From an uncultured Mycoplasmatota bacterium (GTDB taxonomy: Bacteria > Bacillota_I > Bacilli_A > RF39 > UBA660): a DNA stretch of 64,000 bases. A program made the translations under genes and the position numbers. Within the stretch, counting starts at the first letter, position 1. Each line of letters begins with the position of its first letter. The notes beneath the pieces are model-generated. The model made no database searches. It was not told where the DNA came from and saw nothing but the letters and a program-made list of their open reading frames with translations. Shown here piece by piece: positions 14,968 through 50,232 of this stretch. The stretch lies in assembly GCA_900553855.1 (NCBI GenBank), contig USFG01000008.1:1178-65177 (forward strand). The letters are read 5' to 3'.

Positions 14968-14996
14968 ATTCTAGCATAAAAGCAAAATTTATGCAA
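14968..14996 (-). promoter_or_regulatory. sigma-A-type promoter of the 771-aa gene
   Basis: Minus strand: TTGCAT, 17 nt spacer, TAGAAT, followed by the AAAGGGGA RBS. Confidence 0.5.
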
Positions 14997-15057
14997 ACAT
15001 TTTTTTGACTTTTGCTTATTCATTAATTATTATTAAATATTTATCATATTAATTAAT

Positions 15058-15414
15058 ATGAATAAAAATATAAGTAGCCAACTATTTGATGTTGAAAAAG
15101 AAAATATTATTTGGTTAATATATCTTTTTATAATTGGAGCAAATTTTATTAGTAATTATTTTGAAGAAAAATATCTTTATACGGTCGATGAAAAGTATCG
15201 TAAAATTTTTAGATATATAAATATTCTTGTTTTGTTTATTGCGTTATGCATATATATTTATACTACTTATGTTACTTATAAAAACACAAAAAAAGATTCC
15301 CCAACTTATAGGAAACTTTTATTACTTGCAAGTATATGTATTTTAATAGGTGGTGCAATTTACTTATATGTTGAAGTGTATAAGAATGCAAATCCTGAAA
15401 TAGATATTATTTAA
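15058..15414 (+). CDS. small membrane protein
   Basis: 118 aa with 3 hydrophobic segments. Its 3' end overlaps the convergent flp gene by 8 nt. Confidence 0.45.
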   Translation: MNKNISSQLFDVEKENIIWLIYLFIIGANFISNYFEEKYLYTVDEKYRKIFRYINILVLFIALCIYIYTTYVTYKNTKKDSPTYRKLLLLASICILIGGAIYLYVEVYKNANPEIDII

Positions 15415-15634
15415 ACATATCCTCTAGAGATGTATCTTTACTAACACATTCGCCTTCTCCAGGTTTATCACCTTGTTTATAATCTTCTCCAATTAGAGAA
15501 CAACCTGTCTTAGTCATTGCATCTTTTAGATATCCTCCAAAATATGAAACTAGTCCTACTACTAATACTGTAACTAATCCAATGATTACTACATATTCTA
15601 CTAAGGCTTGACCACGATTATTTATTTTTTTCAT
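15407..15634 (-). CDS. flp: Flp/Fap-family type IVb prepilin
   Basis: 75 aa. MKKINNRGQALVEYVVIIGLVTVLVVGLV fits the G/xxxxEY processing motif plus a hydrophobic helix. RBS is AGGGTGA. Confidence 0.7.
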   Translation of the reverse strand: MKKINNRGQALVEYVVIIGLVTVLVVGLVSYFGGYLKDAMTKTGCSLIGEDYKQGDKPGEGECVSKDTSLEDMFK

Positions 15635-34020: not shown

Positions 34021-34875
34021 TTAACATTTTCTACCAATTTTTTCACCTAATTTAACAATTGTTTCAATGTCATTTGCACTATTAAATAAGATATCTTCAT
34101 CAATATTAACATTATTAATTATTAAGATTATGGTCGATGCTCCGAACTTAAAATAGCCTTTTTCTTCACCTTTAATAAATTCATAATTACTATGTTCATT
34201 AACTATTTTACCCACCATTAATGCACCCACTTCAATTTCGATTACATCTCCAAAGGTCTCGGTATGAAGTGTTGTCCACTCTCTTTCGTTTTGAGTAAAG
34301 ACATTTAAATTATTGGTAGCAATTGGTCTAACTGTATGTAAGACACCTTTAATGTGGTTATTTTCTTCTTGGTAACCTGAATCTATATAAGAATATCTAT
34401 GATAATCATCCACACATAAACGAAACACGAGAGCATAAGCATTATCCATATCTAATTTAATATTAGAATCTATTAAATTATTTAAAGTATATTTTGAATT
34501 CTTAATATTAAACACTAAATTTTTAGTAAGTTTATATACTTTTAACTTCGCATCACATGGACTTATTAAGTTATATTTGTCATCATTAATTTTTCTTTTA
34601 CCTTCTTTTATTTTTCTAGTAAAGAAATCATTAAATGATTTATAATCTTTCTTTTCATAATCATTCATATTAATATGATTATTTTTAATAAATTTCGGAA
34701 TCATATTTTTAGAAAAAATAGAGTTTTGATATATGCCAACTATTTTACTTATAAATGGTAATACGATTATTTTTAAAAGAATACGTCCTAACTTAGTTGT
34801 ATATAAAAATACATTTATTTTGCTTTCTTTAATAATAATTTGATTATTTAATCGATCTTTAACTTTATATTCCAT
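34021..34875 (-). CDS. psd: phosphatidylserine decarboxylase proenzyme
   Basis: 284 aa with CVDDYHRY and GYFKFGASTIILI (self-cleavage region). Confidence 0.85.
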   Translation of the reverse strand: MEYKVKDRLNNQIIIKESKINVFLYTTKLGRILLKIIVLPFISKIVGIYQNSIFSKNMIPKFIKNNHINMNDYEKKDYKSFNDFFTRKIKEGKRKINDDKYNLISPCDAKLKVYKLTKNLVFNIKNSKYTLNNLIDSNIKLDMDNAYALVFRLCVDDYHRYSYIDSGYQEENNHIKGVLHTVRPIATNNLNVFTQNEREWTTLHTETFGDVIEIEVGALMVGKIVNEHSNYEFIKGEEKGYFKFGASTIILIINNVNIDEDILFNSANDIETIVKLGEKIGRKC

Positions 34876-35399: not shown

Positions 35400-36380
35400 T
35401 TAATTATTAGAATAATTTAAAACTTTTTCACCTTCTTCTAACATGTTAGTAATTAAAATGCCATAACCTGTTAAGGGATTATCAATAACAACATGGGTTA
35501 CAGCTCCAATTATTTTATTATCTTGAATTATAGGAGAACCACTCATACCTTGAACTACTCCACCAGTTTTATCAATTAATTCCGGGCTTGTAATCTTGAA
35601 GTGTATATTTTTTGTATCATTATTATTAACTCTATCTATTTCAATATCAAAATTTTCGATTTTTTCACCATTAACTACAGTTCTAATTGTGGCGGTTCCT
35701 AATTTAATATCTTTATAAGTTACAACTTCTAAAGTTTGTTTGCTTGCTATATCATAATCATAAATTCCATATATTCCTTTATTAGTATTACTAACAATTG
35801 TTCCGTAATTTATATTACTAAAAAATTTAGCATTTTTAGTTCCGGCTAATCCTTTAACAGATTTATCAATACTTTTAATTGATGTTTTAAAGATTTTGCC
35901 GGTTTTAACCTCAATTAATTTATTAGTTGCACTTTCAATTATTTCGTGTCCTAATGCCCCATATATTTTAGTTTCAGGATCTATATATGAAAGTGTTCCT
36001 ATACCAATAATATTATCTTTAACATATAATCCAGTTTTATATACGCCATCAACTTTGTCTATTTCGATTTCTTTTTCTAGTTCTTTTTCTTCCCTTTTAA
36101 TAGTAATTTTTACCTTATTATCCTTAATATTTTTTTCAATTAGTTTTATCATATTATCAATACAAGTAACTTCTTCATTATTTACTTTTAAAATAGTATC
36201 TCCTACTTTTAAATTATTTTTATTTAATTTACTTTTAACCCTATAGAATCCGACTATTATTACACCTTTATTTTTAACTTCAATTCCTAAAGTATCTCCT
36301 CCAGGAATAATTTTGTCTGAATAGGCTAAAACATTAAAAGGTAACAACAAAATTAGTAGTAAAATTATATATTTTTTCAT
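35400..36380 (-). CDS. spoIVB: SpoIVB peptidase (S55, with PDZ)
   Basis: GIGTLSYIDPETKIYGALGHEI and GMSGSPII. Has a signal anchor and a PDZ domain. Confidence 0.9.
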   Translation of the reverse strand: MKKYIILLLILLLPFNVLAYSDKIIPGGDTLGIEVKNKGVIIVGFYRVKSKLNKNNLKVGDTILKVNNEEVTCIDNMIKLIEKNIKDNKVKITIKREEKELEKEIEIDKVDGVYKTGLYVKDNIIGIGTLSYIDPETKIYGALGHEIIESATNKLIEVKTGKIFKTSIKSIDKSVKGLAGTKNAKFFSNINYGTIVSNTNKGIYGIYDYDIASKQTLEVVTYKDIKLGTATIRTVVNGEKIENFDIEIDRVNNNDTKNIHFKITSPELIDKTGGVVQGMSGSPIIQDNKIIGAVTHVVIDNPLTGYGILITNMLEEGEKVLNYSNN

Positions 36381-36442: not shown

Positions 36443-37179
36443 TTATTTAAGTTTTTTAACTAAAGCATCTAAATTTCGATGAGCTTCATCTAATGTTTCG
36501 GGTTTAGAATAATGAATAGGAATATTTATTCTTTCATTTAGTAAATTAATCATTTTATAATAATTTTGTAAGCTGTTTTTTAAAGCGTGTTCATCATCAA
36601 ATTTAACTAGATCTTGCTCGAAATCTATTAATTTAACTTCTAAGTTTTCATTTATCAAAAAGTTTTTAGCATGAATATCTATGTAGGCAATTCTTTCTTT
36701 ATGAAGTTCTGATAAAATTGTTAAGCATTTACGATATATTAATAATAAATCTTTTAATGATACTTCATTTTTTATTTCATATAATTGTTTGAAATTCTCA
36801 TAATAAATTATTTCTTGGCCTATAATGTTTCCATCTAATGTAACTACTCCAATAGGAAATGATGTCATACTTATTGAAGGCTGAATGCTTTGTAATTTTG
36901 ATATAAATATTTCATCACGGCAACCATTAAAATTAGGATCCAATGAACATTTATAAATTCTTAAAGCATTCTCGGAATTATAATTTGATTTATAAATATA
37001 TACACCTTCATCATCTATTTGCATTGCACTTTTCTTCGCAAAATAATCATTGGCTTCACGTTTTGTCTCATTAACTAATGTTCCTAAATTACCAAATAAA
37101 TTATCTCTAGTAAACGCAATCTCTCTTATATTTGGGTATAATATTCCATTTTATCTATAAAATTTTCTCTTATTTCCAT
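36443..37179 (-). pseudogene. protein-kinase-like fold gene, frameshifted near its 5' end (or N-terminally truncated)
   Basis: The 193-aa ORF carries IDIHAKNFLI...KLIDFE. The ATG at 37179, with strong RBS AAAGAGGGA, opens MEIRENFIDKMEYYTQI* (stop at 37126-28). The main frame is already open from 37150 but has no start before 37024. Confidence 0.55.
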
Positions 37180-37256: not shown

Positions 37257-38777
37257 TTAAATATCTATTATATCTTCTTCTGTTAAGGTTTTAAGTCTAT
37301 TGTCATTTGCTATGTCTTTGCAATTCGAAGCATGATTTATAACACATTTTTCATATAAATTTCTTGCGAATCTAGCATTGCCAAAATTATCGTCGTTAAG
37401 ATGTTTTTCAAAAATGTTTTTTGCTTTAATTAATGCTTTATCTTCAATTTTGAAATTAGATTTTTTTACAAATAATTTAAATATTTCTAATAATTCAGCA
37501 CTGGTATAATCAGGAAATTCAAATGTGTAGCCTATACGTGATTTAATACCTGAATTAGAATTTAAAAATGGTGTCATCTCTTTAGTATATCCGGCGAATA
37601 TGACAATAAATTCGTTTCGATGATCTTCCATTGCTTTTATTAATGTAGCAATTGCTTCTTCATTATAGCTATTATTTTTACTATATAATGTATAGGCTTC
37701 ATCAATAAATAGTACTCCACCCATTGCTTTATTTATTACTTCATTTGTTTTTGGTCCTGTTTGGCCAACATATTCACCTATCAAATCTTTGGCTGAAACC
37801 TCAACAAGTTTATTATATTTAATATATTTTAAATCGTAAAATATTTCGGCAAGTAGTCTAGCTACGGTTGTTTTACCGGTTCCGGGATTGCCTAAAAAAA
37901 CCATGTGTAAATTAACATCATTTATTTTTACTTTACCTTCTGTTTTATTTTTTAAACTTATTAAATCAATTAATTCATTTATAGATTTTTTTATAATATC
38001 CAATCCAATAAGGTCGTTTAATTCTTTTAAAATATCTTCTAATTTTTTTGGCTTATTAATTTCTGGTAATTTATTATTGAATGCAATATATTTTATTAAA
38101 TTATCACGATATGTAGGATAATCAAGATTACTGTTTAAAAAAGTATCACTTATATATTTTTCAATATCAGTTAAATTATCAATATTAATACTTTTTTTAA
38201 TATCATTCATAATATATTTAGTATCTGGCAATATTTCTTTAATAGAATAGGTAAAGTAGCTATTTTCTAATTCATTGTCATTTTTGATAAATTCTTTTAA
38301 ATTTGATTCCGTATCATTTAATATAACGATGTTTTTATAAGTACTATTGTCTTTTAAAATATTAATTAATTTGGTAGCATCTTTACCACTTAAACTATTA
38401 AAATCACTAATTATTAAAATACCTGATTTATAATAATCTTTAACTTTATTAATATCTTCTATATCTGCTAAAGAAATATTAGTTATATTTGTATTTATTA
38501 AATAATTATTACTTACGCTTTTTAATAAATTGATTATAGCATTTAATGTTTCTTTGTTGTTACCGTATAATAAAATATTAAAATTTATGTATACTCCATT
38601 ATTATAGTTTTTTATGTAGGTAATTATTTTTTTTAGTAATTCTTTTGAGTCTTCATCAATAAGTAATTCTTCTATATTCTTTATTTCTATTTCTTTATCG
38701 ATAGGTGTTATTTTTTCTTCTTTAACTGTTCCAAAAAAATCACGATAAACTTCATCTAATATTTTTCTATTATCCAT
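37257..38777 (-). CDS. SpoVK/CbxX-family AAA+ ATPase with a long N-terminal extension
   Basis: FLGNPGTGKTTVARLLAEIF, GGVLFIDEAYTL, and VIFAGY. About 270 aa upstream of the ATPase module are unassigned. Confidence 0.75.
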   Translation of the reverse strand: MDNRKILDEVYRDFFGTVKEEKITPIDKEIEIKNIEELLIDEDSKELLKKIITYIKNYNNGVYINFNILLYGNNKETLNAIINLLKSVSNNYLINTNITNISLADIEDINKVKDYYKSGILIISDFNSLSGKDATKLINILKDNSTYKNIVILNDTESNLKEFIKNDNELENSYFTYSIKEILPDTKYIMNDIKKSINIDNLTDIEKYISDTFLNSNLDYPTYRDNLIKYIAFNNKLPEINKPKKLEDILKELNDLIGLDIIKKSINELIDLISLKNKTEGKVKINDVNLHMVFLGNPGTGKTTVARLLAEIFYDLKYIKYNKLVEVSAKDLIGEYVGQTGPKTNEVINKAMGGVLFIDEAYTLYSKNNSYNEEAIATLIKAMEDHRNEFIVIFAGYTKEMTPFLNSNSGIKSRIGYTFEFPDYTSAELLEIFKLFVKKSNFKIEDKALIKAKNIFEKHLNDDNFGNARFARNLYEKCVINHASNCKDIANDNRLKTLTEEDIIDI

Positions 38778-38812: not shown

Positions 38813-39961
38813 TTATGCTTTTGGTACATTTATTTCGATTAATTTACTCTTTAATTCCTTTTCAATATTTTCAAGTTCGGCTTCTGCTTCCATTCTCTTA
38901 GCATGACCTTCTTCATGAATTTTAATAACATTATCAATGGTTTCAATTAAATCTTGATTTGTTTTCTTAAGAGTTTCAATATCAATAATTGCTTTTTCAG
39001 CTTCCTCAGCTATTTCAATTGAGCCTTGTTTTAATGTTTCACTATTTTTCTTTAACATATCATTAGTTAAATTTGAAACAGCTTGTTGCGATTCTAGGGC
39101 CTTCTTTGAATTATTTATACCTAACGCAAGTACCATTTGATTTTTCCATAATGGGATTGTATTAGTTATTGAACTTTGAATTTTTTCTACTAATTCGGCA
39201 TCATTATTTTGAAGTAATCTAATTTGTGGTGCCATTTGAATAGATATAATTCTTGTAGTTTTTAAATCATAAATTTTCTTTTCGAATCTATTAATTTGAT
39301 TTTCTAAATCTTGAATTTTTTGAGCATCTAATTGTTCATGAGTTTCTTCAAATTTAGCTTTTGCTGCTGGCAATGTTTTATTTTTTAGTTCTTCTAATTT
39401 TCTTTCACCAGCAATTATGTATAATGATATTTCTTTAAAATATTCTAAATTTTTATCATACATTGTATCAAATAAAGCAATATCTTTTAATAAAGTAACT
39501 TTATTTTTTTCTAAACTATTTTCTATTGTATCAACATTTTTTTCAATTTTATTATATTTTGCAATAATCGTACTAATTTCTTTCTTAGCACTGTTAAATA
39601 ATTTAAAGATTCCCTTTTTTGATGTTCCGATAGAAGAATTGAATGATTTGATTTCTCCTACTAAGTTAGCAAGTAACTCACCTGTATCTCCAATATCTTT
39701 TGTTTTAACATCTTCTAATATGTTATCAGAAAAGGCACTTATTTTATTTTGAGCTTTTGCTCCGTATTGAAGTACTAAATTTTGATCCATTACATCAATT
39801 TTAGTAATAAATTCATCAACTGCTTTTTTCTCACTTTCTGATAATTCATCATAATTTAATGATTTTTCAATCTTTTCATCAGTAACTTCTTTACTATTTT
39901 GAGTTAAATTACTAATATTTTCTTCCTTTAATTTGTCTTCTACTTTTAATTCTAAATTCAT
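38813..39961 (-). CDS. TelA/YaaN-family toxic anion resistance protein
   Basis: 382 aa, all-helical, with TelA-like length. Adjacent to an XpaC-like gene, as with B. subtilis xpaC-yaaN. Confidence 0.75.
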   Translation of the reverse strand: MNLELKVEDKLKEENISNLTQNSKEVTDEKIEKSLNYDELSESEKKAVDEFITKIDVMDQNLVLQYGAKAQNKISAFSDNILEDVKTKDIGDTGELLANLVGEIKSFNSSIGTSKKGIFKLFNSAKKEISTIIAKYNKIEKNVDTIENSLEKNKVTLLKDIALFDTMYDKNLEYFKEISLYIIAGERKLEELKNKTLPAAKAKFEETHEQLDAQKIQDLENQINRFEKKIYDLKTTRIISIQMAPQIRLLQNNDAELVEKIQSSITNTIPLWKNQMVLALGINNSKKALESQQAVSNLTNDMLKKNSETLKQGSIEIAEEAEKAIIDIETLKKTNQDLIETIDNVIKIHEEGHAKRMEAEAELENIEKELKSKLIEINVPKA

Positions 39962-39970
39962 TTTTCCTCC

Positions 39971-41158
39971 TTATTTACTTAAATAATCTATTAATTTGTT
40001 ATAATAAGACATTTTTAAACTTGTTACAGTACTTGTTATTTTACTTGGAATACCTATTCCTAAATCAGTTGTACTTATATTTGTACCGGCAACACCTGTT
40101 CTAAATCCATATTTTTCCCAGGCTATACGACTTATTTCTTCATCTTCAAAAGCTGATAATAATTTTTTACCGTTTTCACTGAAAATTGTCAAACAATGAG
40201 AATTCCAAATTGTTGGTTTAGGGTATAAAACTACGATATCATCTTTAACTTGGCTAAAACCAGATGGATTAGAATTAGCAAAATCGATAATACTTTTTTC
40301 ATAATCAACAATCATTGGTTCTCCACCAATACCTGTTTTTAAATATCTTTCAAAAAGGTCAGCAGGGGTATTATTCATATATCCACTCTTTTGATAGAAT
40401 ACTTTTAATTTTTTTAGATTTGTTTCAAGAGTTTGATCATTTATTTCTCCACCACTTAATATAGATAATAACAATCCATAATAAGTTGCTCCTGGAGATG
40501 ATGATACTGGATCAGTTGAAGCTATATTAATATTTCCGTATAGATCTGTTAAGCCAATATCTTTCCATTTTTTACCAGCTAGAATATATTCAATTAATTT
40601 GTTCATATCAGTAATATAGTAAACGCCATTTTCATTAGTAACAATTTCTTCTTTAATTAAAGCATTTACTACTTCTTTCCAACTATATATTACAATTGGT
40701 GTGTTAAGAGTTAAGCCACCATCTAATACGTAATAACGATCTGATTCATTTTTAGTTTTATCTGGTGATAATTTATAATAATCATAGAATCTTTGATCAG
40801 ATGTAAATAAAGCATCATATTTACTAACATTATCACTATTGATAGTAATATTTTCACCATTTTTTATTTTTGTTATTACATCGTTATTTCCTAAATTAAC
40901 ACTTTCTCTAATTAATGGTTTTGTAATAGTTTTACCATTACTCCAATTATCATATACAACTTGAATTTTATATTTTTTGGCTAATAGTTTAGATACTTCT
41001 TTATCTGAAATGAAGTCCTCTTTACCTCCACCAGTTGCAACATATATGGTTGTTAGATTGGAATTTAAAACATCTTTATTACCACTAAAATATTTTATTC
41101 CAACAATAACTCCTATTAGAAGAATAAAAATACTTACTCCAATTATTTTTTTATTCAT
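39971..41158 (-). CDS. membrane-anchored solute-binding-fold protein, paralogous to the N-terminal part of 41773..43353
   Basis: TM anchor. STDPVSSSPGATYYGLLLSIL aligns with SVTSTNTGATAYIGFLNSL of the neighbour. Confidence 0.4.
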   Translation of the reverse strand: MNKKIIGVSIFILLIGVIVGIKYFSGNKDVLNSNLTTIYVATGGGKEDFISDKEVSKLLAKKYKIQVVYDNWSNGKTITKPLIRESVNLGNNDVITKIKNGENITINSDNVSKYDALFTSDQRFYDYYKLSPDKTKNESDRYYVLDGGLTLNTPIVIYSWKEVVNALIKEEIVTNENGVYYITDMNKLIEYILAGKKWKDIGLTDLYGNINIASTDPVSSSPGATYYGLLLSILSGGEINDQTLETNLKKLKVFYQKSGYMNNTPADLFERYLKTGIGGEPMIVDYEKSIIDFANSNPSGFSQVKDDIVVLYPKPTIWNSHCLTIFSENGKKLLSAFEDEEISRIAWEKYGFRTGVAGTNISTTDLGIGIPSKITSTVTSLKMSYYNKLIDYLSK

Positions 41159-41771
41159 TGTTATCCTCCTTTATAATTTCTTCATCATCATAACCATCGG
41201 CTTTAAGCATTGAATTAAATACTTTCATATCAGCATCTATATTTATCATATCATTTTGATACAATCTTTCAAGTATTTTATTAAATGCTTCATCAGCTGA
41301 TTTTAACATTAACTTGGTGGATGATATAAATTCTTTCATCTCTTGTGATGATAAATTTTGATTTTCTATTTCATCATATCTTTTAATTATGCTTAATGTT
41401 ACAGGCAAATAATAGTCGAAAAAGTTAGCTATTTTTCTAATTTTTTTAGGTTCTTTTTCAATGGTACTTATTATTTTATTAGCACTAGTGCTTATATTAA
41501 TTATGTGCTTTTTTAAATCTTCATCTTCAATCTTGTTACGCATATTGTATATATCTTTTGATTCATCTTTAGCGCTTTCAAGAGTTTTTTTAACTGATTC
41601 CGTTGGTATTTGATTTTTTTCATCACTGCTTAGCAATAATTCTCCAGCAATAAATGCGCCGGTTCCTATTAACGCTGAAGGTAATAACGGAAGTGAAAGT
41701 GCCAAATAAGGTATAGCAAAGAAGGCACTTCCTACAACGGCTGATACAGCTTCTTTATACTTTATTTTCAT
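41151..41771 (-). CDS. XpaC-like (5-bromo-4-chloroindolyl phosphate hydrolysis family) membrane protein
   Basis: 206 aa with 2 N-terminal TMs plus a helical domain. Its size and its linkage to TelA resemble B. subtilis XpaC. Confidence 0.5.
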   Translation of the reverse strand: MKIKYKEAVSAVVGSAFFAIPYLALSLPLLPSALIGTGAFIAGELLLSSDEKNQIPTESVKKTLESAKDESKDIYNMRNKIEDEDLKKHIINISTSANKIISTIEKEPKKIRKIANFFDYYLPVTLSIIKRYDEIENQNLSSQEMKEFISSTKLMLKSADEAFNKILERLYQNDMINIDADMKVFNSMLKADGYDDEEIIKEDNNE

Positions 41772-41772
41772 T

Positions 41773-43353
41773 TTAATTATAGCTCCTTACTTCTTTAAAG
41801 GCTTTAAGTAAATCTTCTTTACCATCAAATATTTTGGCGTTGGTAAGTTTAGCTATTTTATCTAATTGTTTTTCACTTGCATCACCGAACGTAATACTGT
41901 AAACAGGAATTTCTTTATTAAGTGTTTTGTAATATTTTGCTAATGTATTGAAGTTTCCTTCATTTATGTAACCATCAGTCATAGCGATAATTGTAGTTGT
42001 ATAATCATCAGTTTCTTTATTTAAGATTTCTAAACCTTTTTGAACAGCATCATAAAGGGCAGTTGAACCACCGACGCGGTATTTATTAATGTTATCTATT
42101 AATTCAGTAGTATTTGTTCCTTCTAATGCTTTCCAAATGTTTGTGACTTTTGTACTAAATGTTATAACAGTTATTTTATCGCCTTTAGAAAATTGTAATC
42201 TGTCTTTAGATGCTTCTTCACTATTTAAAATATAATTCATAGAATCTCTTAATTCTTGGATTCCTTCTCCTGACATACTTCCTGAATAATCTAAGCAGAA
42301 AACTGCATGAGTTGGTTTTCTTAAGCTTTCAATATAAACATTTATTGCTTTTGTAATAACTTTTTTAGATGGAAAATTAGTTACATTTAAATATTTTTCA
42401 GTATCTATTCCCCACTCTGGATTAAATACTTTGGGATTGGTTTTACTACTTACTCCACCGTACCAAGTACGATAGCCATTTTCTTCTAATAATTCCTGAC
42501 CGCTTTCACTTAATAAGAAATTTTGAAAATTTATAAAATCATTTTCTTTAGATTTATCATTACTAATAAACGCAAGAGTCATATCATTTATTGATAGTCC
42601 ATCTTTAGGATAAAATAAATATAATTCTTCTTTATCTTTATCTAGTAATTTTTTATTTATATCTATTAATGATGCTTCATCGGCTATAATTGCTTCATAT
42701 TCATCATTATTTATAAACATTTCTTTAAGATATTCTTCATCACCACTTACTCTTAAAGTTCCAGAAAATAAATTTTTAAGTTCCGTAACTAATTTAGTGT
42801 TATCAAGCATTGTTTCGGTTAGTACTTCAGGATTTCCAGCAAGTGAATTTAAGAATCCAATGTAGGCTGTTGCTCCGGTATTTGTGCTTGTAACAGATGG
42901 CATAACATATTTTATTTTTTTGTTTTTAACTAAAGTAACTATATCATCATTAGTTAATTCTTTTCCAATTAAATTTAGTGATTTAGCTTTACTTTTACGA
43001 ATTCCTAACACGATTGGACTAATCGCAATAGATTTAGAATTACTTGTTAAATATTGATTTTCTAACATATATAGCCACATTGAATTTGATATCCATACTC
43101 CATCGTAACTTTTGGCATTGGTATTTAACTCATCAACTATATCGATGTCTCCCATGTATGTAAAATTTATTTCATATCCTTTTTTATATATTTTATTTTC
43201 TAAAGGTTTCATACTTGAAGAAGCTAAGATATTTAATCTTTTACTTTCAACAACCTCAATCATTTTGTTACTTAACATATCTCCTACAATACAGACAAAC
43301 AAGAAGGTTACAACTAGCGCTATAAAAAGAATTTTATTTTTATTATTCATCAC
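41773..43353 (-). CDS. membrane-anchored solute-binding-fold domain fused to a vWA domain
   Basis: The C-terminus has a complete MIDAS: FCLDYSGSMSG (DxSxS), GGSTALYDAV, and IIAMTDGY. Confidence 0.7.
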   Translation of the reverse strand: MMNNKNKILFIALVVTFLFVCIVGDMLSNKMIEVVESKRLNILASSSMKPLENKIYKKGYEINFTYMGDIDIVDELNTNAKSYDGVWISNSMWLYMLENQYLTSNSKSIAISPIVLGIRKSKAKSLNLIGKELTNDDIVTLVKNKKIKYVMPSVTSTNTGATAYIGFLNSLAGNPEVLTETMLDNTKLVTELKNLFSGTLRVSGDEEYLKEMFINNDEYEAIIADEASLIDINKKLLDKDKEELYLFYPKDGLSINDMTLAFISNDKSKENDFINFQNFLLSESGQELLEENGYRTWYGGVSSKTNPKVFNPEWGIDTEKYLNVTNFPSKKVITKAINVYIESLRKPTHAVFCLDYSGSMSGEGIQELRDSMNYILNSEEASKDRLQFSKGDKITVITFSTKVTNIWKALEGTNTTELIDNINKYRVGGSTALYDAVQKGLEILNKETDDYTTTIIAMTDGYINEGNFNTLAKYYKTLNKEIPVYSITFGDASEKQLDKIAKLTNAKIFDGKEDLLKAFKEVRSYN

Positions 43354-43533: not shown

Positions 43534-44361
43534 TTATTCAGAAGTGTTTATAATAATATTTCCAACGGCACCATTTATTTTTATTTTAGTTTCTCCGTCA
43601 CCTATTAATGTATCTTCCGAAACATCAAAATCATTTAATATTATATTACCTAAACCTTTATTTATATCAAATTTATAATTATCTTTACTTCGACTTAAAC
43701 CTAAATTTAATCTGCCTACTCCAGTTGTTAAAGTATTTGATCCAGTTAAATCACTTTGGATAGAAGCATTGCCTGCACCCAATTTCAAATTAAGATTATT
43801 TATTGTTCCTGAATTAATATTAATGTTACCTGCACCGCCATTTATCATTGCTTTTTCATAAACATTTATTTCTTTTGCTGTCATTGTTCCAGCACCTAAA
43901 TCCATTAATAATGTTTCTACAAATATTTTATCTATATCTATTTTACCAGCACCTAAATTAAGATCTAATACGCTAATATTAAATTCATTTGGAAGATATA
44001 TTATAATAGTTCCTCTAGATGAGTTGCTAAGATGCCAACTAAATGTTTTATCAGATTTAATTTTTACTTTACTATTTTCGTGATAAAATTTAACATCAGG
44101 ATTATTAGTTTTAACTTCAAATTTTTCTCCTTCTTTAATTTCGATATCATCATTGGAAATATCTATTTTAAAGGATTCAATATTATTAACATTATTGGAT
44201 ATTGTAGTATATTCTTCTAATAATTCGCTTTCTTTTTTATCATTATTTATTGAACTTATTATTTCGCGACTTAAACCAAATATAATTGAAAAAATACTGA
44301 TTACTAAAAATAGTGCAAAAGCGATTGCTAAATATTTAATTATTTTTTGAGTAGTTGTCAT
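43534..44361 (-). CDS. DUF4097 (LiaG/YvlB-like) beta-helix repeat protein
   Basis: TM anchor and repeated LGAG(T/N/K).. units (DLGAGTM, GGAGNINI, LGAGNASI). Confidence 0.65.
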   Translation of the reverse strand: MTTTQKIIKYLAIAFALFLVISIFSIIFGLSREIISSINNDKKESELLEEYTTISNNVNNIESFKIDISNDDIEIKEGEKFEVKTNNPDVKFYHENSKVKIKSDKTFSWHLSNSSRGTIIIYLPNEFNISVLDLNLGAGKIDIDKIFVETLLMDLGAGTMTAKEINVYEKAMINGGAGNININSGTINNLNLKLGAGNASIQSDLTGSNTLTTGVGRLNLGLSRSKDNYKFDINKGLGNIILNDFDVSEDTLIGDGETKIKINGAVGNIIINTSE

Positions 44362-45041
44362 TTAATAGTTACTCCTCCAAATAAACAATTAGCATCAATA
44401 AATATTGTTTTAGATTTTTCAGTAGTTTTGCTTCTTTTATTATTAGAAACTCCACCAAACAAGGAACTTGATTTTACCTTTACTTTATAACCATCTGGCA
44501 CTAAAATATCAATTCCACCAAAAACACTACAAGCATTAATAACAACATCATCTTTTATAGTGGCATTTCTTAAATCTAATTTTATACCACCGAATATGGC
44601 ATTTAAGTTTGTCCCTTTAAATTCCTCATCATCTAATTTAATATTTTGATTAGAAAATGTAGCATTAATTCCTTCGTCTTTGTTTATTTTTGAATTAAGT
44701 TTTTTAATTGATTTACTTACACTAGAATTAAATGTATCTTTAAAAATTAAACTTAAACCGACTATAACAATGATTATAGGTACTATCATTTTCCATATTA
44801 AATCAAAATTGATAATATCGTTTGCTCCAGCTAATAATAATAGTCCAATTACCATCCATACTGCATTCCCAGTTTTATCATCATCTGTTATTAAACCTAT
44901 GAATGATGGAATGATTATGAATAAAGCCCACCAACCATCAAAAAAGATATCAATATCAAATAAGCCGAGTGAATTGCCTCCTAAAATTATACCAATAATT
45001 ATTAGGATTACTCCCCATAAAATATTTTTAAAATTCTTCAT
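44358..45041 (-). CDS. LiaF-like (DUF2154) cell-wall-stress membrane protein
   Basis: 4 N-terminal TMs. The C-terminus has four (I/V/L)FGG(I/V) strands. Confidence 0.6.
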   Translation of the reverse strand: MKNFKNILWGVILIIIGIILGGNSLGLFDIDIFFDGWWALFIIIPSFIGLITDDDKTGNAVWMVIGLLLLAGANDIINFDLIWKMIVPIIIVIVGLSLIFKDTFNSSVSKSIKKLNSKINKDEGINATFSNQNIKLDDEEFKGTNLNAIFGGIKLDLRNATIKDDVVINACSVFGGIDILVPDGYKVKVKSSSLFGGVSNNKRSKTTEKSKTIFIDANCLFGGVTIK

Positions 45042-45138: not shown

Positions 45139-46536
45139 TTATTTAGAGGATAAAACATATAATTTATTATTTTGTGAGTGATTATTTTGTGGTTCAACAC
45201 TATTTAATTTATTTTTTATACTTAATGCATATTCTTTTTTATCTTTTAATTTCAATTCGTTACTGTCTAGAATAGCACTAATAAAATCTTCTAATTCAAC
45301 TCTTGAATGTTCTTCATAGATTGCTTCAGCGAAAGCAGACTCTACTATTCTTTTAATAATTCTTATTGGAAGAATTTTATATCTAGCATCTTGATGTTTA
45401 GTAACATTTATTAGTTCTTCAGTAAGATTAATTAACTCAGTTTCAGTTAAGTTAACTTTTATATTGTATTTTCTTTCTAAATGCAGAACATAATTCATAA
45501 TTATTAATTGAACGTTACGATTATCTAATGGTTTTACATTATTAATAGTTAATCTACTAGTAAAAGCTTTATCTCTAGCAATACTTTCATCGTATTCTTC
45601 ATAAGTAGTTGCACCAATAATAGTTATTTCACCTTTTTCAATATAAGGTTTTAAAATGTTAATAGCATCTATTGGGCTATCTTCAGTTCTTCCTAAATTA
45701 TATAGAGTATGTATTTCATCTATAAATAAAATAACGCTTTGATTATAATTTTTGGCAAATTTTATGACATCTTCTAACTTGTCTTCAAATTCTCCTCTAT
45801 ATTTTGTACCAGCTAATAAACTACCAGTATTTAATTCATAAACTACTTTATCTTTAAGAAATTGCTTGTTAGTATGATTAATTTCGTTTACTAAACCATC
45901 AACAATAGCAGTTTTACCAACACCTGCTTCACCTAAAAGGATAACTGATTTACCAAGTATACATGAAACCTTTATTAGGTCTCTTATTTCTTTTTCTCTA
46001 CCAACTACATTAGTAAGATTTGTTCTACTATTCATATTCTGACATGCTTTTGGAACTTTTTTATTTGTTATTTTTTCAGCACTAGGTTCATAGATTTCAT
46101 CAAAATCTTTATTTTCCATATTTATATCTCCTTTTATTGTTCTATTTAATTTCATTATTTCATCGCTATGAATTACATAGTCTAAATTACTAATATAAGC
46201 ATCAAAATATTCAGATAAATTTTTAAAATCAATTTCTTTTGCTGCTAAATTATTTTTCCATTTAGAAATATTACTACCATATATATTTCCATCGCTACCT
46301 ATACGTAATTCGCTAAATGTATTAACATAAAATTGATATTTAGTACCATTAACTAATTCATATAAACTTGCTCTATATATTTCACTACTTATAGGAAATA
46401 TTATTTTACTCAATACCTCTTCAGCATATATGTTATTATCATATGTAATTAACTTAAAATATATATATCCTATATTAGTATCTCTATCATAAACATCCGC
46501 AACAAATATTTTATCATTTAATTTGTATTCAAACAT
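45139..46536 (-). CDS. single-module ClpA/B/C-type (D1-like) AAA+ ATPase with an unrecognised N-terminal domain
   Basis: VVGREKEIRDLIKV, GEAGVGKTAIVDGL, LAGTKYRGEFEDKL, ILFIDEIHTLYNLG, and GATTYEEYDESIARDKAF. Start moved to MFEYK (RBS AAGGGGGA). The track's extension to 46635 covers the promoter. Confidence 0.75.
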   Translation of the reverse strand: MFEYKLNDKIFVADVYDRDTNIGYIYFKLITYDNNIYAEEVLSKIIFPISSEIYRASLYELVNGTKYQFYVNTFSELRIGSDGNIYGSNISKWKNNLAAKEIDFKNLSEYFDAYISNLDYVIHSDEIMKLNRTIKGDINMENKDFDEIYEPSAEKITNKKVPKACQNMNSRTNLTNVVGREKEIRDLIKVSCILGKSVILLGEAGVGKTAIVDGLVNEINHTNKQFLKDKVVYELNTGSLLAGTKYRGEFEDKLEDVIKFAKNYNQSVILFIDEIHTLYNLGRTEDSPIDAINILKPYIEKGEITIIGATTYEEYDESIARDKAFTSRLTINNVKPLDNRNVQLIIMNYVLHLERKYNIKVNLTETELINLTEELINVTKHQDARYKILPIRIIKRIVESAFAEAIYEEHSRVELEDFISAILDSNELKLKDKKEYALSIKNKLNSVEPQNNHSQNNKLYVLSSK

Positions 46537-46592
46537 TTTATTTTCCCCCTTTTTTAAACTAATATTAATGTATCTCCCTGAAATTAGAATAT

Positions 46593-46621
46593 ATTTTAGC
46601 ATATATTTAATAAAAACACAA
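46593..46621 (-). promoter_or_regulatory. promoter of the AAA+ gene (P2)
   Basis: Minus strand: TTGTGT, 17 nt spacer, TGcTAAAAT. It is embedded in a 52-nt block (46581-46632) homologous to 50078-50129. Confidence 0.5.
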
Positions 46622-46756
46622 ACATTTTTTTGCATTTTTATTTATTTTTATTATTAATTATTAATTTTCATTCATTTTTTATACAAAAAAAGACATTAAT
46701 ATAAATATCTTCTATTTTAAAAATATCATATTATATGTCATTCAATACTTTATTTA

Positions 46757-48385
46757 CTACATTAATTTCTTCTTAATATTACTATCTACCACTTCTTTTG
46801 GTAACTCTAGACCATATTTAATAAATAAATCTTTATGTTTAGACATTTCTATATTAAATTGTTGTCTTAATTCTTCATTTTTACCTATTTCATTAAGTAA
46901 TATTTTTGTATACTCCAAAAGTTCTTTTTTATCCCTTTTTAGAAATTTTTTGTCTTTAAAATAACTTAAATCAATTTTAGCAAGACGATGAAATATTAAA
47001 ATAAATAAACCTGATACTAGTAAGCCCATTGCTACATTAAGAGTAGTATCTGTGCTTTCAAATTCTTTAGATTCTAAATCTATCGTTTTATATATTATCT
47101 CATAATAATCAACTAATTCTGTATACTTAATTGGCGACTTTGATATATCTATAATATTCTTTTTAGATTCAGGTAATAAATTATTTGATTGGATATATTC
47201 AATATATTTTTCAATATCATCGTATCCTAAAAAACTTAAATCGTAAGTTTTTGTTTCTCTTAATTTTAATTTTGCTTCGGCTGCGCCATAATTATATTCT
47301 CTACTTGCTCTTCCTTCTTTTTTAGCAGTTTTATCATCTAAAACATGATATTCAATAAGATATGTTTGTTCTGGCTTTGTTTCATCTACAAATCCAATTA
47401 TTTCTTTTGCATTAGAAGATGTAACTTGATTTGTAATTGAATTGTATATTTCAGTATTAGTTTCATAATAATATGCTGATGTTAATTTCTTAAACCAAGA
47501 AAACACTCCAGAAAATATACCTATTGATATTGATAAAGTTATAGCAGTTGAAATTAGTGATGTAAATAATTTTAATAATGCTTTTTTGCATAATTTTTTA
47601 TAATTCTGTACTTCCTTATCAGCCTTTGTATAGGAACTATATGTGTGGTAGATTTGACTGTCACTTTTATCAATTATAGATAATAAATTTGTCATATCAT
47701 CTTTGATAGACTCTTCTAATTTTTCTTTTTCATCTCTAAAGACAATTGTTTTTATAAAACTATTATCTAAAAGTTCAGCTGGATTCAAATTCTTCTTAGC
47801 ATTGTAATAACATACTTCAATTTCCGGATATTCAGTTAAATCTATGGTATTAATATATTCTTCAATCATTAAACTTATAAACATAGTATCATTAATATCA
47901 TACTTACAAAATTCTAATAGTTCGCTTTTTTGATTCAATTTTATCTCTATAAAAATAACTTTTAAAATAGCATTATAGAATGGTTCAACTACTTGTTTTT
48001 CATCCTCATAATCAACTACTGAAGAATTTCTAATTTTTCTTAAAAGAAGTTTTATTTCATCTATTATTTCGTTTAAGTTTTCACTAGTAATATTAACTTT
48101 ATTTAAATATTTGACATAATAATATGTTTTAACGTAAATAGTATAACTATCTAACTTGGCATCTAACTTTTCTAATTTTCCCGTAGCGTTTATATAGTCA
48201 TTTATTATAAATCCTTCAAAACTATTTTTCTTAGAACTTTTAATATCATTATTATTTTCTATTTTGATGCTATCTAATTCTTCTCTTATTTTAGTTACAT
48301 CAAAACCAATTTTTTCAATTTCTCTTATTTTATTATCTATTTCAATTAATTTAGCTTTATAACTAATTGCGACGTCTGTGTTCAT
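46757..48385 (-). CDS. hypothetical two-TM protein, paralogue 2
   Basis: 542 aa: MNTDVAISYKAKLIEID..., TMs near aa 275-300 and 455-475, and a conserved tail ...LPKEVVDSNIKKKLM. Confidence 0.7.
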   Translation of the reverse strand: MNTDVAISYKAKLIEIDNKIREIEKIGFDVTKIREELDSIKIENNNDIKSSKKNSFEGFIINDYINATGKLEKLDAKLDSYTIYVKTYYYVKYLNKVNITSENLNEIIDEIKLLLRKIRNSSVVDYEDEKQVVEPFYNAILKVIFIEIKLNQKSELLEFCKYDINDTMFISLMIEEYINTIDLTEYPEIEVCYYNAKKNLNPAELLDNSFIKTIVFRDEKEKLEESIKDDMTNLLSIIDKSDSQIYHTYSSYTKADKEVQNYKKLCKKALLKLFTSLISTAITLSISIGIFSGVFSWFKKLTSAYYYETNTEIYNSITNQVTSSNAKEIIGFVDETKPEQTYLIEYHVLDDKTAKKEGRASREYNYGAAEAKLKLRETKTYDLSFLGYDDIEKYIEYIQSNNLLPESKKNIIDISKSPIKYTELVDYYEIIYKTIDLESKEFESTDTTLNVAMGLLVSGLFILIFHRLAKIDLSYFKDKKFLKRDKKELLEYTKILLNEIGKNEELRQQFNIEMSKHKDLFIKYGLELPKEVVDSNIKKKLM

Positions 48386-48388
48386 ATT

Positions 48389-50059
48389 TTATTTTCCTCC
48401 TAATAATTTTTTCTTGGTAGTACTATCAAGTGTTTCTTTAGGAAGCTTAATTTCCATATGCTCAAATAAATCACCATATTTAGCTGCTTCGATATTAAAT
48501 ACTGTTCTAAGTTTCTCATCTTGACCAATTAATGTGAGTAGATCCTTTGTTTGTTCTAAAAATAATTTTTTATCATTTTTAAGATTTTCTTTTGCACTTA
48601 TATATTCTATAAACCTATTAATTAGACATAATTTACTTTCATTGTAATAATCATTAGATAAATTGCAATAGACAATTGCTGCTTCTATGGCAATAGTTAA
48701 AATAGTAAGTATAATAGAAAATGTAACACTATTACTACATGCTTCGACATTTTTGGATTCTAAGTCTATAATATTATAGACAATTTCATAATAATCTACA
48801 TATTCTTGAATAATATCACCATTATCTTTTATGTTAACAATTTCACTGCTATTAACAGGTACAGTAGCATTGCTATTCCAATAATCTAAATACCCATTAA
48901 TATCTTGATATTTTAAATAGCTTAAATCATAAACGATTTTTCTTCGATACCACATAGCATCTTCCTCTGTAATTCTAAAATGATAATTTACTTTAGAATT
49001 ATAGTCTTCAATATCATCACTAGTTAATGTATCATATTTAATAACATAGGCTATTTTATTTGTATCATCAACAATTTCTCGTTCATCACTATGGGTATAA
49101 GTATTATCATAAGAATTGTATGTATCTTTACTAACATCATATGAATATTCTTTGAATAACTTTTTGCCTAAAAAATTAAATAAGCTAAAACTAGCTACGG
49201 GTATTGATAACACTATGGCAACTGCGACAATTGACTTCATAAGTTCTTTAAATTCTAATTTAAATGTTTTAACACTATCTTCATATCTTTTTTCAGTATT
49301 AGAATAATCTTTATATTTTTCTTTAATATCTTTTTCAACTGACTCAATATTTTTAACCATGTTATTAGCAGGAACTCTTATAACATTTTTTAATCTATCT
49401 TTTTCATCTTTAAATACCATTAATTTAAGAAAATCATTATCTAATAGTGAACTATTACTACCATTTCTTTTGATTTCATAGTATTTAGCTTCAATTTCGG
49501 GATATTTTTCAAAATTAATTTCATCAACTGCAGTTTTTATTTTTCTTTCAATAAATGACTTATCGATTTCACTAGCTTTGCAAAATTCTAGCAAAGTGCT
49601 TTTTCCAGTATAGTATATTTCAAAACAAATTACTTTAAAAACACCTGTATAAAATGGCTCAACAATTTTCTTTTCTTCTTCATAATCAATCACTGACGAA
49701 TTTCCAAGACTTCTAAGTAGTTTTTTAATTTCACCAATTATTTCATTAATCCTATCTTCTTTAATATAATTTTTATCTAAATATTCAGCATAATTTTTCA
49801 CTTTAATATATATTTCAAAAGAATCTAAACTGTTATCTAATTTTTCTAATCTTGTCATTGCATTAGAGTAATCGATGATTATAAAGCCTTCAAATTTTTT
49901 ATTTTTAGATGTTTTTACTTTTGAATTAGTATCAATAATAATGTTTTCTAATTCTTCTCTAAATGGTTTAATATTAAAACCAATTCTTTCTATTGCTTCT
50001 ATTTTGTCTTCAACCTGTATTAGTTTAGCTTTGTAATTTAGTGCTACATCTGTATTCAT
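48389..50059 (-). CDS. hypothetical two-TM protein, paralogue 1
   Basis: 556 aa: MNTDVALNYKAKLIQVE..., with the same architecture. RBS is GGGGGG. Confidence 0.7.
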   Translation of the reverse strand: MNTDVALNYKAKLIQVEDKIEAIERIGFNIKPFREELENIIIDTNSKVKTSKNKKFEGFIIIDYSNAMTRLEKLDNSLDSFEIYIKVKNYAEYLDKNYIKEDRINEIIGEIKKLLRSLGNSSVIDYEEEKKIVEPFYTGVFKVICFEIYYTGKSTLLEFCKASEIDKSFIERKIKTAVDEINFEKYPEIEAKYYEIKRNGSNSSLLDNDFLKLMVFKDEKDRLKNVIRVPANNMVKNIESVEKDIKEKYKDYSNTEKRYEDSVKTFKLEFKELMKSIVAVAIVLSIPVASFSLFNFLGKKLFKEYSYDVSKDTYNSYDNTYTHSDEREIVDDTNKIAYVIKYDTLTSDDIEDYNSKVNYHFRITEEDAMWYRRKIVYDLSYLKYQDINGYLDYWNSNATVPVNSSEIVNIKDNGDIIQEYVDYYEIVYNIIDLESKNVEACSNSVTFSIILTILTIAIEAAIVYCNLSNDYYNESKLCLINRFIEYISAKENLKNDKKLFLEQTKDLLTLIGQDEKLRTVFNIEAAKYGDLFEHMEIKLPKETLDSTTKKKLLGGK

Positions 50060-50089
50060 AAACTAATTCCCCCCTATAAATTAAGATAT

Positions 50090-50118
50090 ATACTACCATA
50101 CTTTTAATGAAAAAGCAA
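50090..50118 (-). promoter_or_regulatory. promoter of the paralogue pair (P1)
   Basis: Minus strand: TTGCTT, 17 nt spacer, TAGTAT. It has the same geometry and flanks as P2. Confidence 0.45.
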
Positions 50119-50232
50119 ACATTTTTTTGATTTTATAATATATAAAAACACAAAAGAAAATCTAATGTGTTTAAATTATAAAATATAACATATTACGACC
50201 TATTTTACCCATCCTAAAATAACAATAACTGT

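Follow-up and report, generated by a model that had tools for sequence, protein, structure and literature searches.

In a 64,000-nt stretch of DNA (contig USFG01000008.1; hereafter the window) from an uncultured, very AT-rich gut bacterium, two paralogous membrane proteins, A and B, are encoded beside a Clp-type AAA+ ATPase that has a D1 module only. A and B are members of an orphan, previously undescribed family of two-pass membrane proteins with both termini inside (N-in/C-in). In one of the two clades into which this family splits in a rough neighbour-joining tree (clade I), the membrane genes and the ATPase gene have stayed side by side in tight operons of four lineages that have diverged deeply and differ in their flanking genes. 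Because distant relatives show this pairing too, the ATPase and the membrane proteins probably work together at the membrane.

The membrane family and the single-ring motor

An initial annotation, made from the sequence without database searches, described A and B as tandem paralogues lying 3 nt apart, and their end-to-end alignment (41% identity, E = 1e-114) bears this out, as do the shared termini to which it pointed (MNTDVA..YKAKLI at the start and ..LPKE..DS..KKKL at the end). An AGGTGG resembling a ribosome-binding site (RBS) for gene B lies within the end of gene A. The proposed architecture of two transmembrane (TM) segments with a helical N-domain, a loop and a tail is backed both by hydropathy, which places the TM segments at ~276–294 and 445–463 in one paralogue and at ~273–295 and 447–470 in the other, and by an AlphaFold2 model of B built with 58 family members in the alignment (mean predicted local distance difference test score, pLDDT, 89.5). 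In this model, the helical N-domain is followed by a continuous 82-residue helix (220–301) that leads into TM1, a beta-rich loop domain (305–442), TM2 and the C-terminal helices. The Lys/Arg counts flanking the TM segments fit the N-in/C-in topology under the positive-inside rule, and the loop between TM1 and TM2 is thus predicted to be extracellular, with the helical N-domain and the helical tail in the cytoplasm.

Conservation is unevenly spread along these proteins. The ~215-residue cytoplasmic N-domain is the most conserved part (53% identity between A and B, family mean 30%) and carries a near-universal motif, S-x-T-x-DY-x-x-EK-x-IVE...Y...IKLE (also written NSS-x-x-DY-x-x-EK-x-IVE), whereas the extracellular loop varies more and has many insertions and deletions (34% between A and B, family mean 22%). 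Scanned exhaustively with HMMER, 1.84 billion representatives yielded 145 clusters at 50% identity; full-length members have 490–650 aa and mostly align end to end, the remainder being fragments. Every recovered locus has a GC content of 21–29%, and those records that bear a name come from gut metagenome-assembled genomes (MAGs) of uncultured 'Bacilli' or 'Tenericutes'. Tandem arrays are common. One to three copies occur within the species-level clade of the window, two to three in L008, L016, L025, L030 and L032 (L numbers denote the loci recovered from other genomes), and up to eight on the single contig of L014 (1–17438), the largest amplification seen, where six of the eight copies form a near-continuous array broken only by a Peptidase_S51 gene, and gyrB and a dUTPase gene sit between two sub-arrays.

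The initial annotation recognised no family for A or B, and the profile and fold searches likewise place neither protein in a characterised one. Pfam gave nothing above its cut-off for A, B or 58 diverse relatives, and NCBIfam, PADLOC and PHROGs held no match for the membrane proteins; a match to DUF6556 (E = 0.06) was set aside as coiled-coil/TM noise. The best hit of a sequence-profile search of the PDB with the family (E = 0.036) was low-complexity helical noise, and the best Foldseek match of the model in the PDB reached only E = 0.13 and a TM-score of 0.23. 'PA14' and tail-protein matches in BFVD were rejected on their TM-scores (<= 0.23) and root-mean-square deviations (16–30 Å). Our literature searches found no description of the family.

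The third protein aligns over residues 173–414 to residues 184–437 of Escherichia coli ClpA (PDB 1ksf, 6w1z; E = 1e-36) and matches PF00004 with E = 1.8e-14. The initial reading of its C-terminal part as the first AAA+ module of ClpA/B/C is thereby confirmed, since the match is to D1 alone. It has the marks of an AAA+ protein, namely Walker A (GEAGVGKT, at 202), Walker B (ILFIDE, 269), sensor-1 (GATT, 308) and one arginine finger (AFTSR, 324), together with a pore loop (KYRG, 245). Its pore-1 loop, AGTKYRGEFE, differs from that of ClpA by one residue. Across 26 members of its subfamily, G205, G207, K208, T209, D273, E274, T310, T311 and R328 are invariant, as are R247 and G248 of the pore loop within the subfamily. 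Judged by these motifs, the protein is a hexamer-type Clp D1 motor that keeps every residue for ATP hydrolysis and threading, and the invariance of the motor residues leads us to expect an active threading ring.

The motor lacks a D2 module, a Clp N-domain, an M-domain and a ClpP-docking region, and has an orphan N-domain in their place. As the initial annotation had held, there is no second AAA module and no Clp N-domain: Clp_N (PF02861) gives no match even at E <= 1, and neither AAA_2 (PF07724) nor ClpB_D2-small matches anywhere in the 465 aa, which sets the protein apart from the two-module Clp/Hsp100 class 1. Its NCBIfam scores also fall far short of the equivalog cut-offs throughout (for ClpA, 163 bits where 993 are required). 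As for the IGF/IGL loop that docks ClpP, the D2 module in which ClpA and ClpC carry it is absent, and the rest of the protein was checked for it by alignments only; with no D2, there is nothing to dock ClpP. The N-domain (residues ~1–135) is modelled as a beta-sheet with two helices, followed by a disordered linker (pLDDT 72), and a Foldseek search of the PDB with this model returned no meaningful match.

This N-domain is conserved across a small subfamily of single-module D1-type proteins of 449–606 aa, in which a strand reads ...YA-EEISTG-IFP..., and a tail of the form K-[IL]-[LY]-x-[LF] (K-I-L-x-L) is kept near the C-terminus subfamily-wide. Single-module members number ~30 among the 120 ATPase matches listed. 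In variants of ~585–605 aa (P0132, P0133, P0134 and P0135), the N-domain motif is duplicated (…IYAKE…LFP… twice). A further relative of 783 aa, P0130 (L021, 473–2824), joins the same N-domain to two D1-like modules in tandem, with Walker A motifs at 240 and 516 of a 794-residue open frame and without the exact KYRG pore motif; by its motifs, it is a D1–D1 double ring and not a D1–D2 one. Our literature searches turned up no account of D1-only Clp proteins that carry this N-domain and, to our knowledge, single-ring Clp D1 proteins with a substrate-recognition domain of their own are essentially unstudied.

Operons, promoters and neighbouring genes

A gene-neighbourhood survey found the pairing of two-TM proteins with the D1-only ATPase in other genomes, in tight operons and down to an ATPase identity of 36%. 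In the close relatives L004 and L007, the latter lacking gene B, the ATPase gene follows a membrane gene after ~34–36 nt that hold an RBS only and no promoter. In L012/L013, the order is priA, a single membrane gene, the ATPase gene (53% identical), LiaF and DUF4097. L018 has the order TM-TM-ATPase-TM with gaps of 1–11 nt and an ATPase of 36% identity, an HTH-CYTH gene upstream and FtsW downstream, L020 has TM-TM-ATPase-TelA, and in L019 a truncated family member (349 aa) lies 12 nt upstream of the N-domain-doubled ATPase P0134 (8001–9752), the pair being placed between thioredoxin and mnmA. In the neighbour-joining tree, all membrane genes linked to the ATPase belong to clade I.

Directly upstream of the TM-TM-ATPase operons of L018 and L020 lie an HTH_3 + CYTH protein (L018 3392–4105; L020 167–880) and a ~185-aa orphan, the former being a candidate regulator. 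In the window, the membrane genes are preceded by priA. Three other loci (L002, L005 and L006) carry a ~2.5-kb insertion between priA and the first membrane gene that is absent from the window and, in L006, contains a 304-aa ORF (open reading frame) and two small reverse-strand ORFs.

For the ATPase gene of the window, we prefer the ATG at 46536, which is preceded by the RBS GGGGG and agrees with homologues that begin MFEYK. The length of 465 aa given in the initial annotation therefore stands, but its distance of about 120 bp does not: the gap is 220 bp, and 121 bp separate gene B only from an upstream in-frame ATG at 46635. The coordinates of the locus are collected in Table 1.

Table 1. Genes and regulatory elements of the locus and its neighbourhood, in window coordinates
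Feature	Coordinates	Strand	Details
Membrane protein A	48389..50059	minus	556 aa, N-in/C-in; based on ORF, paralogy, TM segments and family hidden Markov model (E = 2.9e-134)
Membrane protein B	46757..48385	minus	542 aa; paralogue of A, begins 3 nt past the A stop codon
D1-only Clp-type AAA+ ATPase	45139..46536	minus	465 aa
Promoter block P1	50078..50129	minus	before gene A; 14-mer CAAAAAAATGTTTG, -35 TTGCTT (50113-50118), 17-nt spacer
P1, -10 box	50090-50095	minus	TGg-TAGTAT, then TAATTT and RBS
Promoter block P2	46581..46632	minus	before the ATPase gene; 14-mer CAAAAAAATGTTTG, -35 TTGTGT (46616-46621), 17-nt spacer
P2, -10 box	46593-46598	minus	TGc-TAAAAT
Candidate intrinsic terminator	46685..46739	minus	AT-rich hairpin and U7 after gene B
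LiaF-like membrane protein	44358..45041	minus	LiaF-TM and LiaF C-terminal toastrack; co-varies with the ATPase among close relatives
DUF4097 toastrack protein	43534..44361	minus	N-terminal TM; 4-nt overlap with the LiaF-like gene; same variable block
SBP_bac_11 + VWA	41773-43353	minus	
XpaC/Halogen_Hydrol	41151-41771	minus	
Orphan protein	39971-41158	minus	395 aa
TelA	38813-39961	minus	
Second AAA protein	37257-38777	minus	AAA_lid_6, 280-aa N-region of unknown type
Protein-kinase-like fragment	36443-37024	minus	
SpoIVB	35400-36380	minus	
PS decarboxylase	34021-34875	minus	

The initial annotation also proposed that the membrane genes and the ATPase gene carry homologous promoters, and the two blocks are indeed identical at 42 of 52 positions, far above the best ungapped 52-mers of 200 intergenic shuffles (30.7 ± 1.4, maximum 36). 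The -35 and -10 boxes were read from the sequence and not called by a tool; a generic consensus promoter scan, which at 24% GC is uninformative (68 sites against 66.7 expected), had neither P1 nor P2 among its top matches. On the 3′ side of P2, the P1 leader and RBS are repeated in vestigial form (cagggagat...attagttt) ahead of the ATPase gene's own RBS, so that P2 is a segmental copy of the membrane-gene promoter together with its leader. P1 is kept before the first membrane gene in all relatives. P2, absent from L004, L007 and L012, is found only in the arrangement of the window and in L001/L003, where it heads a helicase island and not the ATPase gene. The duplicated promoter is thus no general trait, being confined to this strain's arrangement, and relatives either co-transcribe the ATPase gene directly or use a different promoter.

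Nor is the 14-mer private to the locus. It is present in both blocks, as had been noted, but exactly three copies exist in the window, against 0 expected. The third (14994–15007, minus strand) has the same layout, with -35 TTGCAT, a 17-nt spacer and TGc-TAGAAT, and precedes the gene of a 771-aa orphan protein (12627–14942, minus strand) that has no Pfam or PHROG match and no similarity to the membrane family. Its position before an unrelated gene points to a wider promoter type or regulon and not to a signal of the module's own; it may reflect either a common regulon or the reuse of a promoter cassette. Nearby, at 15407–15634 on the minus strand, a 75-aa ORF has an N-terminus resembling Flp or a type-IV pilin (MKKINNRGQALVEYVVIIGLV…).

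The hairpin after gene B is weak (minimum free energy -14.1 kcal/mol, z = -1.5) and was not called by a scan for GC-rich terminators; its 3′ half and T-tract are kept in L002. Between 43.0 and 50.4 kb, Rfam contains no RNA family. The ancestral state in the window's clade looks, from the arrangement of these genes in relatives, like a tight TM-ATPase operon. In the present strain, the terminator-like hairpin would separate the membrane-gene unit from the ATPase unit, and the copied promoter and leader would re-couple the expression of the ATPase with that of the membrane genes.

Downstream of the ATPase gene, the neighbours are of a recurring kind. LiaF/toastrack and TelA/XpaC proteins are associated with membrane stress and with daptomycin and bacteriocin tolerance (PMC11237479, PMC6811118, PMC3498285, PMC12791056), and their recurrence here suggests a role in membrane or envelope stress; this context in the window, together with TelA beside the operon of L020, is the sole hint of a physiological role. 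No histidine kinase, response regulator or PspA is present among the ORFs scanned between 34 and 52 kb, and the three proteins and 14 neighbouring ORFs scanned gave no match to PspA, Snf7 or MIT. Compared by hhalign with TelA, with XpaC and with the 771-aa orphan, the profile of the membrane family gave negative results.

Readings of the pairing

We favour, tentatively and with a probability of roughly 0.45, the reading that the ATPase is an accessory partner which docks on the clade-I membrane proteins and acts on their assemblies by non-proteolytic remodelling or extraction, probably in a setting of membrane stress. As a dedicated but dispensable partner, the ATPase would bind through its N-domain or its conserved C-terminal tail, and its docking site on the membrane proteins would be either their cytoplasmic N-domain or their Lys-rich C-tail. 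Its ring would thread a terminus and so remodel, disassemble or extract the oligomers or hetero-oligomers formed by the paralogues; in another version, the membrane proteins may anchor the ATPase so that it acts on other membrane clients. In either case, its action would be non-proteolytic. What speaks for such a partnership is adjacency with short gaps in divergent lineages whose flanks differ (the window, L004/L007, L012/L013 and L018–L020), as well as the rarity of both partners, the intact motor motifs, the conservation of the ATPase N-domain and of the cytoplasmic N-domain of the membrane proteins, the stress-type neighbours and the duplicated promoter. That the clade-I proteins and the ATPase amount to a new ATP-driven membrane machine of these gut Bacilli with reduced genomes, one in which a single-ring Clp motor with its own docking domain assembles, disassembles or threads hetero-oligomers of the two-TM paralogues, strikes us as unlikely. 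Such a machine would be a functional parallel to Vps4/ESCRT-III, to NSF/SNARE or to a translocon, made of unrelated parts.

Several observations weigh against a partnership of this kind, and the three-gene module of the initial annotation has to be qualified accordingly: the pairing does recur in other genomes, but it is not fixed. Sister strains whose PriA is 97–98% identical to that of the window keep the membrane genes but not an intact ATPase gene. In L002, which has both membrane genes, the hairpin after gene B is joined directly to the upstream region of the SBP-VWA gene, with no P2, ATPase, LiaF or DUF4097 in between; in L001 and L003, all that is left of the ATPase gene is a decayed 5′ piece directly after gene B (…KVYAEEVVSKIIFPISGEY…), followed by the P-block and then by the helicase island (L001 9640–16250; L003 3800–6000), in which two large ResIII-like helicases of 591 and 823 aa with C-terminal repeats are accompanied by small ORFs of unknown type. 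Membrane proteins that persist without the ATPase evidently function without it and, as gene content indicates, the membrane genes can dispense with the ATPase, the link being facultative, not obligatory. Within the window's clade, moreover, the ATPase is gained and lost with LiaF and DUF4097 and not with the membrane genes. The larger clade has no such ATPase within 8–10 kb (L014–L016, L023–L026, L033 and L034; L017 could not be judged downstream, its contig ending after the membrane gene), its only AAA+ matches being ordinary 770-aa Clp proteins that lie 8 kb off and are without the N-domain. Conversely, ATPase homologues with the same N-domain stand alone in three lineages (L009/L010, L011 and L021). 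A 538-aa unannotated protein near the solo ATPase of L011 is not a member of the membrane family, and a tetranucleotide and GC comparison of this ATPase locus with the clade-II genes of L016, from the same metagenome, found all loci to look alike. Since every linkage falls in one clade and possibly goes back to a single ancestral event, the recurrences may count as one retained observation and not as repeated independent origins. Finally, the P-block also heads unrelated genes (the 771-aa orphan and, in L001/L003, the helicase island), so that a shared promoter alone does not imply a shared function.

Most of these observations are what one would expect if the two genes were merely neighbours by descent, which is the main rival to a docking ATPase, albeit in our view a doubtful one. 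Adjacency would then be inherited synteny within one clade, without functional coupling; the membrane family would have a structural, sensing or surface role of its own, with arrays that diversify the loop, and the ATPase would be a general cytoplasmic chaperone or a partner of LiaF/toastrack. The absence of the ATPase near most of the family, its loss in sister strains, the solo homologues and the joint coming and going of ATPase, LiaF and DUF4097 as one block all agree with this, as do the arrays of up to eight copies and a loop that exceeds the N-domain in indels and falls below it in identity. Simple inheritance is harder to reconcile with an adjacency that holds to 36% ATPase identity while all other flanking genes change, with operons as tight as gaps of 1–36 nt and an ATPase gene embedded in the membrane-gene array of L018, or with L018, L019 and L020, where LiaF and DUF4097 do not lie beside the ATPase.

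The two other explanations that we weighed are less likely. The region after gene B is, by comparison of the sister strains, a variable hotspot, and it might be one for accessory cargo, of which ATPase-LiaF-toastrack would be one item, possibly with an anti-phage or stress function, the helicase island would be its replacement in other strains and the P-block a portable boundary promoter. Presence and absence among near-identical strains fit this picture, with a clean absence in L002 and the helicase island after the P-block in L001/L003, and so do weak PADLOC matches of the ATPase to the TRIP13 and IetA models (E about 1e-6). Those matches (E = 2e-6 to 5e-6) were discarded as generic AAA+ similarity, and neither PADLOC-DB, in which the locus corresponds to no defence system, nor PHROG holds a match for the membrane proteins. 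Besides, no integrase or other mobility gene adjoins the ATPase-LiaF-toastrack block in the window, the ATPase gene of L012 is chromosomal and syntenic with the housekeeping genes priA, spoIVB and psd, and the remnant right after gene B in L001/L003 argues for the loss of an ancestral operon and not for the insertion of an ATPase gene; we therefore hold the cargo explanation to be improbable. More improbable again, by analogy with known exporters, is a translocon, a channel or ring made of the paralogues into which the Clp-like motor would feed unfolded substrates. An intact threading pore loop with no protease-docking part could be read in this way, as could the long stalk helices, which run unbroken into the TM segments, and the encoding of several paralogues together. 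Each chain has only two TM helices, however, there are no predicted substrate genes and no signal of an oligomeric pore, the fold searches matched no secretion component, and the family mostly occurs without the motor.

Comparison with known systems and significance

The single-ring Clp D1 protein described here has a candidate dedicated membrane partner, which makes for a concrete, testable pairing, and the partner belongs to a family with a confidently predicted fold that, as modelled, has no relative in PDB or Pfam. The amplification of this family, up to eight-fold, in abundant uncultured Bacilli of the human and animal gut suggests that it is probably important to their membrane or cell-surface biology. 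Were the coupling true, it would add a further way of recruiting AAA+ motors to membranes and would tie such recruitment to the poorly understood LiaF/toastrack/TelA/XpaC stress genes and thereby to daptomycin and bacteriocin tolerance (PMC6811118, PMC12791056). Should it not be real, there would still be a new lineage-restricted membrane family and the reuse of a promoter cassette in a variable chromosomal region.

Among known proteins, the D1 rings of ClpA, ClpC and ClpB come closest to the window's ATPase. Walker A, Walker B (ILFIDEIHT) and the pore-1 loop (AGTKYRG-FE) are near-identical, sensor-1 and one arginine finger are shared, and a hexameric, polypeptide-threading ring is to be expected in both. 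In contrast to those proteins, the window's ATPase is single-module, without D2, ClpP-binding loop, Clp_N or M-domain, and has an orphan 135-residue N-domain and the C-terminal K-I-L-x-L tail. Single-module D1-type proteins also exist in the form of short Clp_N + D1 proteins (~439 aa; P0186, P0190, P0203 and others), but these carry PF02861, PF00004 and PF17871 (Clp N-domain and AAA_lid_9) and are only ~43% identical to the window's ATPase over D1.

Clp motors that serve a membrane-associated apparatus instead of ClpP are known from type VI secretion (ClpV/TssH) and from the PTEX complex of Plasmodium (HSP101), where ClpV recycles sheath proteins and HSP101, with EXP2, feeds a translocon. These are two-ring proteins with partners of known fold; no homology or fold similarity to those partners was found for the proteins described here.

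A AAA+ gene that adjoins paralogous helical, membrane-associated partners in an envelope-stress context (LiaF-TM, toastrack) also recalls Vps4 with ESCRT-III/Snf7 and the AAA+ partners of PspA (PMC11237479). The likeness is one of arrangement: the window's ATPase is of the Clp-D1 type, outside the classical Vps4 clade and without an MIT domain, and its putative partners are integral membrane proteins with two TM segments that have an extracellular domain and show no PspA/Snf7 similarity in sequence or fold. The LiaF-like and DUF4097 genes directly downstream of the ATPase gene resemble the LiaF/LiaI-LiaF-TM/toastrack systems of Bacillota, from which the locus differs in that no LiaRS or LiaH/PspA adjoins it, the membrane family is unrelated to LiaF, and L018, L019 and L020 do not have the LiaF link. 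An AAA+ motor with a dedicated membrane partner is thus known as a broad kind, within which the membrane family, the N-domain of the ATPase and the pairing of the two are new.

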